64,000 nucleotides of DNA. Origin: an uncultured Nitrospiraceae bacterium. GTDB lineage: Bacteria > Nitrospirota > Nitrospiria > Nitrospirales > Nitrospiraceae. The notes under the pieces are model-generated. The model worked only from the letters and a program-made list of their open reading frames with translations. It was not told the origin of the DNA and made no database searches. Made by a program: the position numbers and the translations under genes. The stretch is from NCBI GenBank assembly GCA_963730935.1, contig CAVSTP010000002.1:640001-704000 (forward strand). The letters are read 5' to 3'. Of the stretch, positions 31,043 to 38,194 are shown piece by piece; the first letter of the stretch is position 1, and each line of letters begins with the position of its first letter.

Positions 31043-31324
31043 ATGGCCACATCAACACCTCCGTCAGGCTCATCCAACGGCCAACCTCAATCCGCCGGAG
31101 CTGAAGCAACCTCATGGGACGTCGAGTTGCTTCGCGTCCTGGTCAGCCGCAACGGCTCACAGGTTGAGGCGCAATGGGCAATCCACCCGCAACTCAAACA
31201 GGATCTCCTGCCGCATGAATGGCAGGAAGTCAGCGATTTGATGGCGAAAGTGTCTGCCATTGTCGGAAGTCGGTTTTCCCAGGTCCTGTCTCAAGCCGAT
31301 CCGGAACCTCCAAGCAACGCGTAA
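31043..31324 (+). CDS. Hypothetical protein
   Basis: 93-aa ORF with GGAG RBS. Confidence 0.65.
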   Translation: MATSTPPSGSSNGQPQSAGAEATSWDVELLRVLVSRNGSQVEAQWAIHPQLKQDLLPHEWQEVSDLMAKVSAIVGSRFSQVLSQADPEPPSNA

Positions 31325-31367
31325 TCACTCGTCAACGCGGTCTATCCATTCACGAGGGGAGCGTCGT

Positions 31368-31700
31368 ATGGACACCTATTACCATCCGCATGATTTAAAC
31401 AAGTTTGCAGACATGGGCAAAGGCAATGCAGCGCTCTGGGACAAGTTCATGAGTTATTACAGCGCAGTCTTTGCCGAAGGAGCGTTGACCGAGCGAGAAA
31501 AGGCGCTCATCGCATTGGCAGTCGCCCACACGGTGCAGTGCCCCTATTGCATCGATGCCTACACACAGGCATCGCTGGAAAAGGGGTCGAACGTGGAGGA
31601 AATGACCGAAGCCGTGCACGTGGCTTGTGCCATTCGGGGCGGAGCCTCACTGGTGCACGGTGTGCAGATGCGGAACGTGAACGAGAAGCTGTCCATGTAG
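31368..31700 (+). CDS. AhpD/carboxymuconolactone decarboxylase family peroxidase-like protein
   Basis: GALTEREKALIALAVAH..QCPYCIDAY. Confidence 0.9.
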   Translation: MDTYYHPHDLNKFADMGKGNAALWDKFMSYYSAVFAEGALTEREKALIALAVAHTVQCPYCIDAYTQASLEKGSNVEEMTEAVHVACAIRGGASLVHGVQMRNVNEKLSM

Positions 31701-31730
31701 AAACAAAGGAGTGGCGAACCAGTGTGCCGG

Positions 31731-31898
31731 CGGGATGCTCAAAAACGCCGGTGGTTAGGCCGCAGGGACCTTGGACGCCGACGCGTACGGTTGTGGGTAC
31801 GTTGAGGCGGACAGGCGACTGAGGACGCAGCTCGGTGCAGGACGCGTCTCGGCGCGCCGGGGTGGGCGGGTGAGAAGGACGGCTTTTTCAGCATCCTG
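31731..31898. repeat. MITE/REP-like palindromic intergenic element, copy 1
   Basis: Ends GGATGCTCAAAAA and TTTTTCAGCATCC; core GCGTCTCGGCGCGCCGGGGTGGGCGGGTGAGAA shared with 36660-36835. Confidence 0.8.
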
Positions 31899-33743
31899 CT
31901 ACAGGTAAGGATGCTCTGGGATGGCAAGCGTGAAATACTTGCCACGCTCTTCGTATAGCACCCGCCTGGTGGTCAGGTCGACCAATGCCGATTCCAGTGG
32001 CTCTCGATCGGTCTTGGACTCATCGAGTGTTGCGCGGATCTGATCGAGACTCTTTGGTGACTCGTTGCACATCTCAATAAGGACGGCGGCCAGCCCATCG
32101 TACCGGCGTCGCGTGGGAGCCTTGGGGTTCCGCCCGTCGTATACCGTGACATACCCCAACGCCTTCGAATAATACAGAAACGGACGGTCATTCGAGGCAT
32201 GGAGCCGCTGCCATCCCTCGACCGAGGACACCAGTTCTTGGTAGACATGCGGATCGATCGGCCAGTTCTCTAATTCGTACTCGAAGTCGTACGCGATTTT
32301 CATCAAGTCCACCTGCAGGGCATCATACACATATTCATAGGCCAATCCCGGGCCCGTCATCCGCACGCCGTAATCGTGTGGTCTGGCATAGTACGGGCTG
32401 AACCGTTCCAACCAGAATTTCCCCGTGGCTTCCGGCGGCTGCAAATGGACTAAAGACGGAATCAAGTCGATTTGGTGCAGATAATCGCCGTTGGTTTCGC
32501 CGGGAAAGCCCAACAGAATATTCCAGGACACCGCAATCCGGTAATAATAGCTCCATTTGAGGCAAACGATGTTCTGCATCGGCGTGACGCCTTTGTCCAT
32601 CGCTTTGAGCTGAGTGGCGCTCAAGCTTTCGAGACCGGGCTGCATGCACTTCACTCCGCCCAGCGCCAAGGTCCTGATCTGGGATTTCTGAAGATTGCTC
32701 TTGGTCTCGATGAAGACGTCAAGGTCGCAGTGCTCGGCGGCAAACTTCCCGAAGAGCTGGTCGATGTATTTCATGTCGATGATGTTATCGACCAGTCGGA
32801 AGCGAGCCGTATCGTACCGGTGAGAAAGGTACGTCATTTCGCGAGCGACCTGATCGGGCGGTTTGGCGCGAAACCTCATACTTTGGGCATTGAGTCCGCA
32901 GAATGTGCAATGATGTTTTTCGCCCCACCAACAGCCGCGGGAACCTTCGTACAAGAGAATCCGATCGAGGCCTTGGGCCGTGTCGCCCAACTCAGCCAGC
33001 AAATGGTAATAGTCGTCATAGTCAGGCGGACCGGTCCGCGCAAAGTCGGTGAAAAGCGCGGGGGTCGGCGTCAGCCGGACTTGACCGTCCTGGCGAAACG
33101 CCACTCCCGGTGGACACACAGTGGAGCGTCCTGCCAGCACCTGCTGAGCGAGCTCCGGAAACGCGACTTCGCCTTCCCCCACGACCACGTGGTCGATGAA
33201 GGGAAACGCTCGAAAGTACTCCAATCCCATCTCTCCATCGTAGTTGGCTCCTCCGAACACGATGGTCACTTCGGGGTAGAGATCTTTGATCAGCTTGGCC
33301 ATCGTGAGACTCGCCACGTTCTGATCGAACGTGGAGGTGAACCCGACGAGCTTATAGCGGCCCCAATCGATCGCGGTCAGTGCCCACGTCAGAAACTGCG
33401 GCGCGATTTTCGTGGCCATTTCCTCGAAATAGCCGATCGGCTGTCCGCTCTGTTGGGCGATTTGTTCGAAGACGGGCTTGAAGACTCGTGGGTATTCCGC
33501 TCGCTTGGGGTTGTCACGGAACAGCAGGTAGGAAAACAGCCATTCGCCGAAGAGCGCGCGCTTCTCACAAATGAGCTCGTACAGCGGCACGCCGATCTTG
33601 TGAGCGAACCGTACGTTCAAGTGGTGGCAATCGACCGCGATACCTTGGGATTTGAGCAACGCCGAAAGGGTGCCGAGCTGGATGGACGGATATTTCGAGA
33701 AGCTGAACGGCATGTTGACGAGCGCCACCTGCGCGTCGTCCAT
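31899..33743 (-). CDS. B12-binding radical SAM enzyme, RiPP-maturation type (TIGR03975-like)
   Basis: MPF...PSIQLG.L, FGGAN, SRGCWWGEKHHCTFCGLN (Cx7Cx2C), QPGLES, WNILLGFPGE, ERFSPY. Confidence 0.9.
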   Translation of the reverse strand: MDDAQVALVNMPFSFSKYPSIQLGTLSALLKSQGIAVDCHHLNVRFAHKIGVPLYELICEKRALFGEWLFSYLLFRDNPKRAEYPRVFKPVFEQIAQQSGQPIGYFEEMATKIAPQFLTWALTAIDWGRYKLVGFTSTFDQNVASLTMAKLIKDLYPEVTIVFGGANYDGEMGLEYFRAFPFIDHVVVGEGEVAFPELAQQVLAGRSTVCPPGVAFRQDGQVRLTPTPALFTDFARTGPPDYDDYYHLLAELGDTAQGLDRILLYEGSRGCWWGEKHHCTFCGLNAQSMRFRAKPPDQVAREMTYLSHRYDTARFRLVDNIIDMKYIDQLFGKFAAEHCDLDVFIETKSNLQKSQIRTLALGGVKCMQPGLESLSATQLKAMDKGVTPMQNIVCLKWSYYYRIAVSWNILLGFPGETNGDYLHQIDLIPSLVHLQPPEATGKFWLERFSPYYARPHDYGVRMTGPGLAYEYVYDALQVDLMKIAYDFEYELENWPIDPHVYQELVSSVEGWQRLHASNDRPFLYYSKALGYVTVYDGRNPKAPTRRRYDGLAAVLIEMCNESPKSLDQIRATLDESKTDREPLESALVDLTTRRVLYEERGKYFTLAIPEHPYL

Positions 33744-33783
33744 CGCATGCCCTGTCGAATTCGCGTCGTGAGTCACTCTGTGA

Positions 33784-34137
33784 TCACCCACTCGCCATCG
33801 CTCGAAACGGTTCAAATTCCCTGTCGGCCTTTGCCGCCAGGTAAAAATCGCTTTCGGTTAGTCCATTGATCTTATGCGTCCAGATTTCAATCTTGCATTT
33901 TCCCCACGACAAGTGGAGATCGGGATGATGGCCCTCGGCTTCGGCCACGGCACCCACCTTGTTGACGAAGGCCAAGGCCTGCGCGAAGTCTTTGAAGGTA
34001 TACAGTCGTTCGAGATGGCCTTCAGGGCTCAAGGACCACCCGCGGCCGAGTTCCTTCAATAACGCCTGTACCCGATCATTGGGAAGCGGGGGCACACCGC
34101 CGCGGCAGGGGACACATTTGTTGTCAGCAAGACCCAT
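33784..34137 (-). CDS. phhB: Pterin-4a-carbinolamine dehydratase
   Basis: AEAEGHHPD, WTHKINGLTESDF.LAAK. Confidence 0.93.
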   Translation of the reverse strand: MGLADNKCVPCRGGVPPLPNDRVQALLKELGRGWSLSPEGHLERLYTFKDFAQALAFVNKVGAVAEAEGHHPDLHLSWGKCKIEIWTHKINGLTESDFYLAAKADREFEPFRAMASG

Positions 34138-35267: not shown

Positions 35268-36608
35268 GTGCCTCCCTTCAGCACACGCATCGACACCATC
35301 GGCTGGTTTACCGCGAGCTGCCTTCTCATCAGCAACATCATCGGGGGCGGCATCTTCACGACCACAGGGCTGTTGGCGAGAGATCTCGGCGATCCGATGC
35401 TGATTCTCTTGCTCTGGAGCGTGGGCGGCTTCTTTGCGATCGGCGGTGCGATGGTCTACGGCGAGCTCGGCTCGCGGCTTCCACATGCTGGAGGCGATTA
35501 TGTATATCTGCGCGAAGCCTATGGACCGTTGGTGGCCTTTCTCAGCGGCTGGACGTCGTTTACGATCGGCTTCGGCGCGGCCGTCGCCGCGTCCGCCATC
35601 AGTTTTTCCGCCTATGCCTTCAGAATCCTTCCCGTCATGGACGAGACTGGTTGGCGGGCCAAAGGGCTATCGCTGGCGTTGTTGTGGCTCGTGACGCTGG
35701 TCCATTGCAGAGGCCTGGCTGGCGGCGGCCGGTTGCAGCGCATGATTACGAGCACCAAGGTGCTGGCCATCGGAGTCCTGATTCTGGGCGGCTTATCGGC
35801 GAGCGCTGGGCATTGGGGCTGGTTGTCGGACCGGCAAGTAGTCGAATCTCCGAAGGTGGGGTCCCTCGCCGTCGCGCTCGTGATCGTGATCTATTGTTAT
35901 CTCGGGTGGAACGTGGCCGGGTTTATTGCCACCGAAATCGCCAACCCTCGCCGTACGCTGCCGAGAGTGATGATCGGCGGTACGGCGTTCGTTGCGGCCA
36001 TCTATGTACTGTTGAACCTCGTGTATCTGTCCGCCTTGTCGGTCGCCGAGTTAGCGCAGGAACCCATCGTGCCGGTCGCCGAGAAATCTGCGGCGGCCTT
36101 ATGGGGAGCAGATAGCGGACACTTAGTCGCGGCATTACTCTGCCTTTCCATTGCCGGAGCGGTCAGCGCCATGACCTGGGCCGGCCCACGTGTCTACTGG
36201 GCCATGGCGCAAGACGGCGCGATCACCCCATGGCTGGCCTACCGCCATCCCGAAACCGGCGTCCCCGCACGTGCGATTCTCTTTCAAACGCTCTGGGCTT
36301 CAGCGCTGATCGTGAGCGGCACCTTCGAGCAATTGATCATCTACAGTGGAATGGTGCTAGCATTCTTCATGGGGCTGACCCTGTCGGCCATCTTCCCTCT
36401 TCGTTCGAGAAGTCAGGATCCGTGCCCCGCCTACCGTAGTCCGTGGTATCCGGTGTTGCCGGCTCTGCTCGTCTCCGGGGCCATGTTGGTGGTGGGCTCG
36501 AGCTTCTTGCAGCGACCGGTCGAAGCCTTCTATGGAGCGCTGACCGTGGTGGGCGGCCTTCCGCTTTATTTTTATTGGAGACGAAGGAAGGCGCTACATG
36601 GGCAATAG
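35268..36608 (+). CDS. APC-family amino acid permease
   Basis: IIGGGIF, YGELG..LPHAGGDYVYL, multiple TM helices. Confidence 0.92.
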   Translation: MPPFSTRIDTIGWFTASCLLISNIIGGGIFTTTGLLARDLGDPMLILLLWSVGGFFAIGGAMVYGELGSRLPHAGGDYVYLREAYGPLVAFLSGWTSFTIGFGAAVAASAISFSAYAFRILPVMDETGWRAKGLSLALLWLVTLVHCRGLAGGGRLQRMITSTKVLAIGVLILGGLSASAGHWGWLSDRQVVESPKVGSLAVALVIVIYCYLGWNVAGFIATEIANPRRTLPRVMIGGTAFVAAIYVLLNLVYLSALSVAELAQEPIVPVAEKSAAALWGADSGHLVAALLCLSIAGAVSAMTWAGPRVYWAMAQDGAITPWLAYRHPETGVPARAILFQTLWASALIVSGTFEQLIIYSGMVLAFFMGLTLSAIFPLRSRSQDPCPAYRSPWYPVLPALLVSGAMLVVGSSFLQRPVEAFYGALTVVGGLPLYFYWRRRKALHGQ

Positions 36609-36659: not shown

Positions 36660-36835
36660 GCGGATACTCAAAAAGGCCGATATTCTCACCCACCCGATCC
36701 CACCGCGTCCAGGACGCGCCTTCCCAGGCAAGGCCGCAACGAGAGAGAGCGATGTGAAAACGAAGCTCGGTGAAAGGCGCGTCTCGGCGCGCCGGGGAGG
36801 GCGGGTGAGAATGTCAGGCCTTTCTCAGTATCCGC
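36660..36835. repeat. MITE/REP-like palindromic intergenic element, copy 2
   Basis: Terminal inverted repeats GCGGATACTCAAAAAGGCC / GGCCTTTCTCAGTATCCGC plus internal inverted arms. Confidence 0.8.
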
Positions 36836-36881
36836 AAAAATGACACGGGCGACCTTGCACTATGGTGGGAGGTCGCCCGTG
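36836..36881 (-). terminator. Intrinsic terminator
   Basis: CACGGGCGACC/GGTCGCCCGTG stem followed by TCATTTTT on the minus strand. Confidence 0.7.
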
Positions 36882-36885
36882 GTCG

Positions 36886-37272
36886 GCGCTTAGGACGCCG
36901 GAACTGCTATTGAATTGTTGCGGCCCGAAAGACCCGCCCGAGGCCAGGTTCTGCGAGTTTCCAGTCGGGGGAGACGTCGTCAATCCCAGGCGCTTATGTT
37001 CCTCGCGCCGCGACGAATGCTCCGACGAAGCAGGCTGATATCCAGTTGGTCTATGGTGCCTTCACGGCACAGCCAGCGGAGATCCGGCTAGCGCGACCGA
37101 CGAGAAACCCGCCCTCGCATCGGCGGGCCTGACAAGCCAGGTGGAGTCGCGTCGTCCATGTCCACCCTCCTCTCTTGGTGAAGTCAACGGGAGACCTGGA
37201 TGACAGCCGCGCGGTCTGTCCGATCTCTCGCACTTCAATGGGGCTTCAGGGCCGCAGTTCCCGTCCTACGCT
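36886..37272 (-). ncRNA. Candidate large structured non-coding RNA of unassigned family
   Basis: Nested end-to-end helices and at least five internal hairpins, upstream promoter-like motifs, downstream terminator, no long credible ORF. Confidence 0.6.
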
Positions 37273-37366
37273 CATTAGATGATCGTGTCAATGGGGGTCA
37301 GAATTTTATTGCCTGTCGCCATGACGCATATCCCGTACCAAACGATATGGGGTCAGAATTGAGGAT

Positions 37367-38194
37367 TTAGACAATCCGGAGTTTGGAAAAATCGACGCCG
37401 GGGAGAGGGGGTGGTAGCTTCAGTTTCATCTCGGCGAGCGCATGGAGGACGCGATCCGCAACCACCAGGTTGCGGAACCATTTTCGGTTAGCCGGCACGA
37501 TGTACCACGGGGCGCAATCGGTACTGGTTACCGATATCACGTCTTCAAACGCCCTCATGTATTTTCCCCAGAACTTCCGTTCTTCGAGGTCACCGGAATT
37601 CCACTTCCAGCGTTTCTCCGGGTCTTGAATTCGCTCCTCCAGCCGCTTCTTTTGTTCTTTCTTGGAGATGTGCAGGAAAAATTTCAGTACGGCCGTGCCG
37701 TTTTCCACCAACATTTCCTCGAATTCTCGAATTTGGTCGAACCGGCGTTTTACCACTCGGTCGGGTACCCAGCCGTGCACGCGCGTTATCAGCACATCTT
37801 CGTAATGAGATCGATTAAAAATGCCGATAAATCCTTTCGGCGGAACCTCTCGGTGTACACGCCACAAAAAGTCACGAGCCAGTTCGTCCTTAGACGGGGC
37901 TTTGAACGAGACGACTTTGCAGCCCTGCGGGTTTACCCCGGACATCACATGCTTGATCGTGCCGTCTTTTCCGCTCGTATCCATGCCTTGCAGCACGATC
38001 AACAACGACCGGCTGCTATTCGCATACAGCCGTTCTTGCAGTTGGCCAAGTCTGGCGACCCACCGTTCAACCTCTTTTTTTGCAGCCGTTTTCCCATCGT
38101 CGTTCTTCTTGTAGTCGCCGGTGTCATCGGGATCATAGTCTTTCAATCGCACCCGGCTGTCAGGCTTCACCCGATAACGGTTCATCGCGCTCAT
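37367..38194 (-). CDS. ppk2: Polyphosphate kinase 2 family protein
   Basis: QGMDTSGKDG, FNRSHYEDV, KFFLHISK, PWYIVPANRKW. Confidence 0.95.
   Translation of the reverse strand: MSAMNRYRVKPDSRVRLKDYDPDDTGDYKKNDDGKTAAKKEVERWVARLGQLQERLYANSSRSLLIVLQGMDTSGKDGTIKHVMSGVNPQGCKVVSFKAPSKDELARDFLWRVHREVPPKGFIGIFNRSHYEDVLITRVHGWVPDRVVKRRFDQIREFEEMLVENGTAVLKFFLHISKKEQKKRLEERIQDPEKRWKWNSGDLEERKFWGKYMRAFEDVISVTSTDCAPWYIVPANRKWFRNLVVADRVLHALAEMKLKLPPPLPGVDFSKLRIV

Follow-up and report, generated by a model that had tools for sequence, protein, structure and literature searches.

The window analysed here (a 64,000-nt stretch of DNA from an uncultured Nitrospiraceae bacterium) carries on its minus strand an element which, judged by comparison with its relatives, is a real stand-alone RNA gene with a promoter, a structured body of ~420 nt, a 3' hairpin and a terminator. 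The predicted RNA lies at 36836..37255 (-), a conserved block whose start we place from promoter spacing. Its region folds with a minimum free energy of -215 kcal/mol (z -2.8), and 0 of 100 shuffles were as good. A sequence-only reading of the window had already proposed a stand-alone structured RNA that has a promoter and a terminator of its own; the motifs it quoted are all where it placed them, and the proposal holds up in 84 homologs, in which the element is conserved and covarying. Its view of the RNA as purely non-coding has to be given up, because the most conserved part of the element is a ribosome-binding site (Shine-Dalgarno sequence, SD) plus a mini-ORF which, from its pattern of codon changes, is under peptide-level selection. 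We propose that the element represents an undescribed, order-wide RNA family, which would be a stand-alone variant of the upstream-ORF (uORF) ribosome-sensing switch.

A PPK2-family polyphosphate kinase gene (37367..38194, minus strand; PF03976, TIGR03709) lies upstream, outside the RNA. Downstream is an amino-acid permease gene (35268..36608, plus strand; PF13520), which is convergent and therefore cannot be regulated by the RNA as a leader. Neighbours of this main copy vary freely across the 30 closest loci: a convergent gene faces it in at least 20, a co-oriented ORF follows in six, and four are ambiguous. Elsewhere in the window, a B12-binding radical SAM gene (31260-33815; PF04055, PF02310) adjoins a small ORF that we take to be CMD/AhpD-like.

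Homologs were gathered by profile, giving 208 matches and, from these, 140 full-length copies (a promoter and a 3' hairpin were required, and 68 partial matches were left out), 131 of them unique and 84 kept at <88% identity (mean 61%). The promoter and hairpin were thus selection criteria, so their conservation was checked in independently picked metagenome copies. A covariance model of the core matched 135 of 151 genomes of the order (by family: f1 58/62, f2 55/63, f3 19/21, f45 3/5). Twenty weak matches, drawn from families other than f45, were inspected, and 19 proved to be genuine homologs carrying the promoter, the SD and the mini-ORF, in most cases with the 3' terminator hairpin as well. 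The twentieth, L274 (G134:C1:2840600-2843800), was rejected as false, being an array of long imperfect repeats. By blastn, 78 of the 86 genomes from the family have the element, and titles of ORF-pattern matches are nearly all Nitrospira, Nitrospiraceae or Nitrospirota among the 80 of 121 matches listed. Outside the order, 118 other phylum genomes and 71 other class genomes yielded no convincing match to a sequence-only model of the head; partial matches (15/118 at E 0.009-0.1; 1/71 at E 5e-4) were counted as not found. Neither of two apparent range extensions was accepted: a Hydrogenedentota-labelled contig (L146) is probably misbinned, because its copy matches the Nitrospira paralog L049 by eye, and an archaeon-labelled pattern match (L137) has the hairpin only.

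Genomes of the order hold 1-5 copies, with tandem pairs in several genera, and inheritance looks vertical. The alternative of a MITE or other mobile repeat, raised earlier, was rejected: the source genome has two copies only, and none occur in the viral contigs or plasmids searched. The second copy (L002, G000:C4:941372-941771) is 5'-shortened, has its own sigma54-type box and promoter, and is followed by a same-strand CBS-domain gene. Another genome (G133, complete) carries near-identical CBS-linked paralogs at distant sites (L054 and L055), and their near identity implies a recent duplication.

The predicted sigma70-type promoter (37263..37291, minus strand) consists of TTGACA at 37291-37286, a 17-bp spacer and a -10 box, TAGGAC, without the last T. 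Four of the 84 close copies have that T, as do 23 of the 24 distant ones in which a promoter was matched and 67 of the genome's 97 TTGACA-17-TA sites. Among metagenome copies chosen by ORF pattern alone, TTGAC-16/18-TA stands upstream in 101 of 108. Farther out, 49 nt upstream of the -35 box, is a predicted sigma54-type GG-N10-GC box (37326..37340, minus strand); the earlier suggestion of such a box is borne out by its occurrence 47-52 nt upstream of TTGACA in 43 of 84 copies, where three control offsets gave 2, 3 and 6, and RpoN is encoded in the source genome. At the other end, a terminator-like 11-bp hairpin with a modest U-tract (36836..36881, minus strand) is 97.5% paired, and 7 of its 11 pairs are compensatory; the stem had been recognised from the single sequence and is 98% paired in the 84 homologs. 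The U-tract has 4-6 T of 9 in 65 of 82 scored copies. A simple promoter/terminator scan detected neither the promoter nor the terminator of the RNA.

A discrete transcript had been named as a check on the gene, and the element is indeed carried by RNA-seq contigs from four studies (36837-37244, 36836-37247, 36817-37222 and 37009-37244), which as assembled contigs do not resolve strand, ends or level. Two of the RNA contigs extend ~20 nt or more beyond the terminator hairpin. Contigs of three studies end at 37244-37247 without loose ends, ~10 nt inside the sigma70-predicted start, and this shared end near the predicted start is a weak hint. More broadly, 19 of 22 listed sequencing runs contain the element, the RNA-labelled ones coming from six studies. 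Flanking genes are almost uncovered in the RNA runs, which we did not count as evidence: these are contigs only, and the runs were chosen for containing the element, four of the 22 being compared. We take the element to be an unannotated transcript in soil metatranscriptomes.

The mini-ORF (P0001, 37088..37159, minus strand) has 23 codons here, with peptide selection confined to codons 1-8 (37159-37136) and Pro-Pro-Gly at 37144-37136. The SD lies within 37166..37183 (GGAGG at 37170-37166, minus strand) and is partly masked by an upstream anti-SD hairpin. GGAGG occurs 4-9 nt upstream of the start codon in 82 of 84 copies, and the head, i.e., SD-start-x4-Pro-Pro, is found in all 84 non-redundant and all 131 full-length copies. 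Its consensus is SD-AUG-x-[DE]-x-[TS]-Pro-Pro-[G/D], with acidic residues at codons 2-3: codon 3 is D/E in 80 of 84, codon 5 is T/S in 82 of 84, and codon 8 is mostly G (56), otherwise D (27) or V (1), with K and N as further residues in distant copies.

Tree parsimony counts 70 synonymous and 56 non-synonymous changes at codons 2-8, a dN/dS of 0.28, where the other frames give 1.91 and 1.78; the ratio rises to 0.98 over codons 9-14 and to 1.46 over codons 15-23. Pro6/Pro7 underwent 15 synonymous and 0 non-synonymous changes; the selection count is rough and the Pro pair belonged to the search pattern, though no copy failed it. All four Pro codons are seen at position 6 (which prefers CCA, 74/84) and three at position 7, making 9 codon pairs. 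The commonest pair, CCA-CCT, makes up 140 of 273 element heads, yet just 40 of the 1687 Pro-Pro pairs counted across long ORFs of the genome. Among copies, Ser is encoded as AGY and TCC, and Leu as CTN and TTG. ORF lengths are 8, 14, 16, 20, 23, 28 and 41 codons, with 9 in a distant genus; the stop position varies (after codon 8, 9, 14, 16 or 23), so the tail of the product is irrelevant. Because the selection signals differ along the ORF, we conclude that selection acts on the peptide in the first eight codons and on the RNA in the remainder.

The RNAalifold consensus is a long rod closed by pairing of two segments, X and Z, then a 5-bp hairpin, then the terminator, and on this model the base of that rod can be exchanged for a local hairpin. 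The 76-pair model is 85.8% paired, and 49 of 76 pairs change on both sides, with 0 of 500 shuffles as high and slid controls at 40-45% paired; these totals include one mis-registered 4-bp helix (34% paired), and relatedness inflates the pair counts. An unsupervised mutual-information (MI-APC) scan mainly picked up the division between paralog clades and was not used. In the main clade, and only there, the body is closed by P1, whose 5' strand (37249..37255, minus strand) has its partner at 36920-36926 (72% paired in the 84). The 5' hairpin P2 (37190..37229, minus strand) has compensatory changes in helices 3-4 and a self-complementary loop 8-mer at 37207-37214, in which one symmetric double change preserves the palindrome. 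The loop palindrome is present in 36 of 84 copies, and some palindrome of at least 6 nt in 65 of 84 (raw counts without a chance baseline); it could make kissing dimers, or just be a tetraloop stem. The anti-SD helix is 88% paired with compensatory changes.

Segment X (37120..37129, minus strand) starts 30 nt downstream of the first base of AUG, an offset kept across three families even with a stop at codon 10, and codon 11, which lies in X, is GGC in 82 of 84. Its local partner Y (37107..37114, minus strand; the early hairpin) is 94% paired, with 3 of 7 pairs changed on both sides, and its distal partner Z (36931..36941, minus strand; the base of the rod) is 98% paired, with 4 of 9. As predicted helices, X-Y and X-Z are mutually exclusive, both covarying, and overlap the ORF. 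For example, at one position of X there is triple covariation (local pair GC 57, AU 15 and GU 10 of 84; distal pair GC 52, AU 13 and GU 6 of 75), and the same substitutions recur in X, Y and Z. Folding predictions form X-Y in 64 of 84 truncated transcripts, and in full-length RNAs they form X-Z in 60 and X-Y in 13 of 84. Z was not recognisable in 9 of 84 copies; both partners of X reach at least 7 bp in 14 of 26 distant copies (a raw count without a chance baseline). The rod interior (36964..37101, minus strand) comprises 37101-37097/36968-36964 and 37096-37090/37009-37003 plus side hairpins, and its helices 7-8 are 91% paired with 9 of 12 pairs compensatory. After an A-rich linker comes a near-invariant 5-bp hairpin with a CCUAA loop (36885..36899, minus strand), 100% paired in the 84-copy set, for which it was a selection criterion; of the 99 independently chosen metagenome copies that reach far enough, 84 have it. 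It is a candidate protein site or 3' protector.

The helices proposed from the single sequence fared unevenly. Among the hairpins, CCCGCC/GGCGGG (94% paired), GTGCC/GGCAC (84%) and GACAG/CTGTC (78%) stand, and GGCGC/GCGCC (37009/36989; 69%) is unsupported. GGTGG/CCACC is 85% paired and never changes on both sides, its 3' strand being the Pro-Pro codons. Of the nested outer helices, GCGGCCC/GGGCCGC survives, in the main clade only (72%), and the other four are unsupported and partly coincidental: GGAACT/AGTTCC (39%), TGCGAG/CTCGCA (47%) and TCCAG/CTGGA (65%) are not conserved helices, and TAGGACG/CGTCCTA is 62% paired without compensatory change, its 5' strand being the -10 box and its 3' strand lying inside a 100%-paired local hairpin.

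We found no earlier description of the element in the literature within our scope, outside which lay subscription papers and the supplement of a 50-genome ncRNA survey (PMC11109978), whose main text has 0 mentions of 'nitrospir'. Rfam 15 gave no match at the gathering threshold for the window or for 17 homolog loci, distant ones included, in line with the earlier failure to assign a family, and in evalue mode the window gave three chance-level matches only (E 0.64-8). RNase P, SRP, 6S and tmRNA had been set aside from the letters, and rightly, as each is located elsewhere in the genome (6S as a partial match, over the cut-off). CsrB/RsmZ sponges combine many GGA loops with a CsrA partner; GGA here numbers 8.6 vs 7.7 in shuffles, and the 99.9%-complete genome has no CsrA. 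Hammerhead- and group II-like words seen by eye are not conserved in alignments and have no Rfam match. RAPP/RGPP arrest peptides have Arg two residues before Pro-Pro and lie upstream of protein-export genes; the mini-ORF has Arg at codon 4 in 5 of 84 copies, and its neighbours differ.

Among known leaders, mgtL and mgtP are proline-rich. The element shares with uORF attenuators a short SD-led ORF under peptide-level selection and mutually exclusive helices overlapping that ORF; the trait it lacks is a controlled, co-transcribed downstream gene, and some paralogs fit in layout only. The closest case is mgtQ of Salmonella, an 8-aa uORF in which Asp2 and Glu5 impede translation and drive alternative stem-loops (PMC8092293). 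Like mgtQ, the element has a very short ORF with early acidic residues and proline, overlapped by two mutually exclusive stem-loops, and in the mgtQ type it is the behaviour of the ribosome, not the product, that matters (PMC8092293). Unlike mgtQ, which controls the next gene in cis, the main Nitrospirales copy is terminated, stands alone and faces a convergent gene; it also has a covarying rod of ~200 nt as well as the conserved 3' hairpin, and the sequences are unrelated.

Two further comparisons are instructive. Targets of the nuclease Rae1, for which cleavage 12 nt upstream of a stall at SPP is described (PMC12407103), likewise have a short ORF or SPP pause (spyA/S1025, bmrX, the SPP of fliY) in an organism encoding Rae1/YacP, but the known ones sit in polycistronic mRNAs, whereas the Nitrospirales RNA is only a putative target. 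The raiA motif, OLE, ROOL and GOLLD are, in the available descriptions, also stand-alone, several hundred nt long, covarying and of a function not known; unlike them, the element has no Rfam match. To our knowledge, no RNA of this type is built round a translated Pro-Pro mini-ORF.

Paralogs of the RNA adjoin CBS, MscS-like and ClpX genes. The 5' module, without 3' hairpin and terminator, stands directly upstream of clpX (L061-L063) and amoC (L072, L080); copies upstream of clpX paralogs keep the terminator at L057 and L103 and are without it at L061-L063. We examined 30 amoC loci, from 35 matches in 14 of 121 genomes. The 5' module is directly upstream in 2 of 30 and the 3' module directly downstream in 6 of 30 (one weak); one locus has both, and all module-bearing loci are from one genus. 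The remaining 23 are without either, including the loci in which an amoA-like gene follows amoC. The genus concerned (g6) has extra amoC genes flanked by the 5' module and/or the 3' hairpin-terminator, in a cluster with CBS genes (L080, L207, L211, L214, L215, L228, L230, L232); this flanking by RNA halves suggests that amoC was inserted within an RNA copy. At L205, a strong promoter, an SD and a short ORF without Pro-Pro lie ~200 nt before amoC, and the 5' flank resembles the leader of the paralog. The source genome has no amoC, and the available part of PMC13602936 contains nothing on leaders.

We read the element as a stand-alone, ribosome-pause-gated RNA switch, mgtQ-like, which would act as a sensor of translational stress, and we consider this reading about equally likely to be right or wrong. 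The best-kept part of the element is a Pro-Pro mini-ORF just before a switchable helix, so its mode of action probably involves a paused ribosome. Gene boundaries, the peptide-selected head, the fixed spacing and the two conformations come from comparison; the ribosome steps we infer. Ribosomes would load on the nascent RNA before the SD becomes masked, and the acidic/Pro-Pro head would slow them or make them abort. A ribosome with Pro7 in its P site would, by footprint geometry, have its mRNA entry channel at about the base of X. Whether the ribosome pauses or reads through would then select X-Y, the early hairpin, or X-Z, the long rod, and the chosen fold might set RNA stability (possibly via Rae1) as well as exposure of the 3' hairpin and linker. 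The signal may be EF-P, prolyl-tRNA or ribosome integrity under stress, and derived copies may use the same 5' module as a leader before clpX, CBS or amoC genes.

The folding order, X-Y and then X-Z, counts for the pause-gated switch. PPD, PPG and PPK are among EF-P-dependent pauses, with upstream residues tuning their strength (PMC4140641), and EF-P and Rae1/YacP are both encoded in the source genome. The Rae1/YacP-family nuclease gene (G000:C4:1224204-1224575) has its own TTGACA promoter. Counting against the switch, most PPX motifs give no strong pause even without EF-P (PMC4140641), and the source genome does encode EF-P. In the finished RNA the SD is predicted to be mostly paired (mean unpaired probability 0.22), so translation may be rare. 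Also counted against it are the convergent next gene, i.e., no regulated output at the window locus; the 5' module before only 2 of 30 amoC genes, where decayed promoter-donating copies would look alike; and, on the structural side, kinship-inflated pair counts, a clade-dominated mutual-information scan, 9 of 84 copies without a recognisable Z, both partners of X reaching 7 bp or more in just 14 of 26 distant copies, and full-length X-Y in 13 of 84. A bolder form of the proposal is tentative, and we would expect it to fail somewhat more readily than to hold: the element would found a new class of RNA gene that captures a ribosome at a programmed acidic/Pro-Pro pause before a switch helix, as a Nitrospirales stress sensor or ribosome reserve, and whose portable 5' and 3' halves were co-opted by comammox bacteria for extra amoC.

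An unlikely but serious rival is a stoichiometric parking RNA, which in starvation would hold 70S ribosomes (with short peptidyl-tRNA-Pro), EF-P or tRNA-Pro before the stable rod; it would be a reserve or throttle, and the fold a roadblock and protector instead of a switch. Its model is CreT, a toxic, CRISPR-repressed RNA that works together with the ribosome and depends on one particular rare codon (PMC8501985). The layout is alike, with a strong SD, AUG, two slow codons for one amino acid in the mini-ORF (here codons 6-7) and a stable stem downstream (PMC8501985). The CCA-CCT pair, rare in the genome yet commonest here, fits as well, as CCA strengthens pausing in E. coli (PMC8129111), and so do the stand-alone form, the copy number, the near-universal presence in the order and paralogs beside CBS, MscS-like and ClpX genes. 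However, CreT's rare codon is essential, whereas the Pro codons swap synonymously; moreover, the genome already has two HPF-family genes, and a pure roadblock needs no second covarying partner for X. CreT also differs from an RNA that is near-universal in an order, and the neighbours scanned (PPK2, permease, CBS, ClpX, MscS-like, AmoC) showed no Cas link.

Less probable is a micropeptide mRNA, in which the first 8-9 residues would bind a target protein and the structures would merely regulate and stabilise the message. Order-wide retention of residues 3-7 (D/E, L/T/A, T/S, P, P) and the existence of complete 8- and 9-residue products would suit it, but any tail sequence of 0-33 extra residues is tolerated, and a free peptide needs no fixed AUG-to-X spacing, which is kept even beyond the stop. 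We think it more doubtful still that the family consists of cis-acting leaders (uORF attenuators) for stress genes, with stand-alone copies as orphaned leaders. Terminator-less 5' modules before amoC, clpX and other genes, and the own-genome paralog preceding a CBS gene, speak for it; against it, the most conserved, near-universal copy usually faces a convergent gene while its neighbours change freely, no antiterminator was seen, and the terminator is almost fully paired alone.

A toxin message of the type I toxin-antitoxin kind is very unlikely. Type I toxins are small hydrophobic ORFs; the peptide here is hydrophilic (GRAVY -1.16) and truncatable, and a hydrophobic 18-mer was found in any ORF in just 5 of 84 copies. 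The RNA does resemble aapA/hok messages in its metastable co-transcriptional hairpins giving way to long-distance pairing, its masked SD and its tandem copies (PMC6733600), but differs from them in having neither a hydrophobic toxin ORF nor a conserved antisense promoter (9 scattered matches in 84 copies), and its vertical-looking inheritance, with no viral or plasmid matches, also tells against a toxin. Least credible is a purely non-coding RNA, with the ORF-like head serving as an RNA motif. RNA structure has clearly shaped codons 9-23, and the SD is mostly paired, but the synonymous excess at codons 2-8 is frame-specific, AGY/TCC Ser and TTG/CTN Leu interchange, and SD-AUG spacing is invariant. 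No single known kind fits, because the element fails one defining test of each: a controlled gene for mgtQ, a rare codon for CreT and a hydrophobic toxin for type I systems.

Nitrospirales oxidise nitrite and perform complete ammonia oxidation, and they endure long periods without substrate. The order has in this element a near-universal, undescribed RNA gene with a fixed AUG-Pro-Pro-helix geometry and two covarying conformations, and hence an order-specific marker. It also offers a handle on the regulation of extra amoC copies in one comammox genus. If the pause-gated switch proves true, ribosome sensing by uORFs would extend from cis leaders to stand-alone RNAs.
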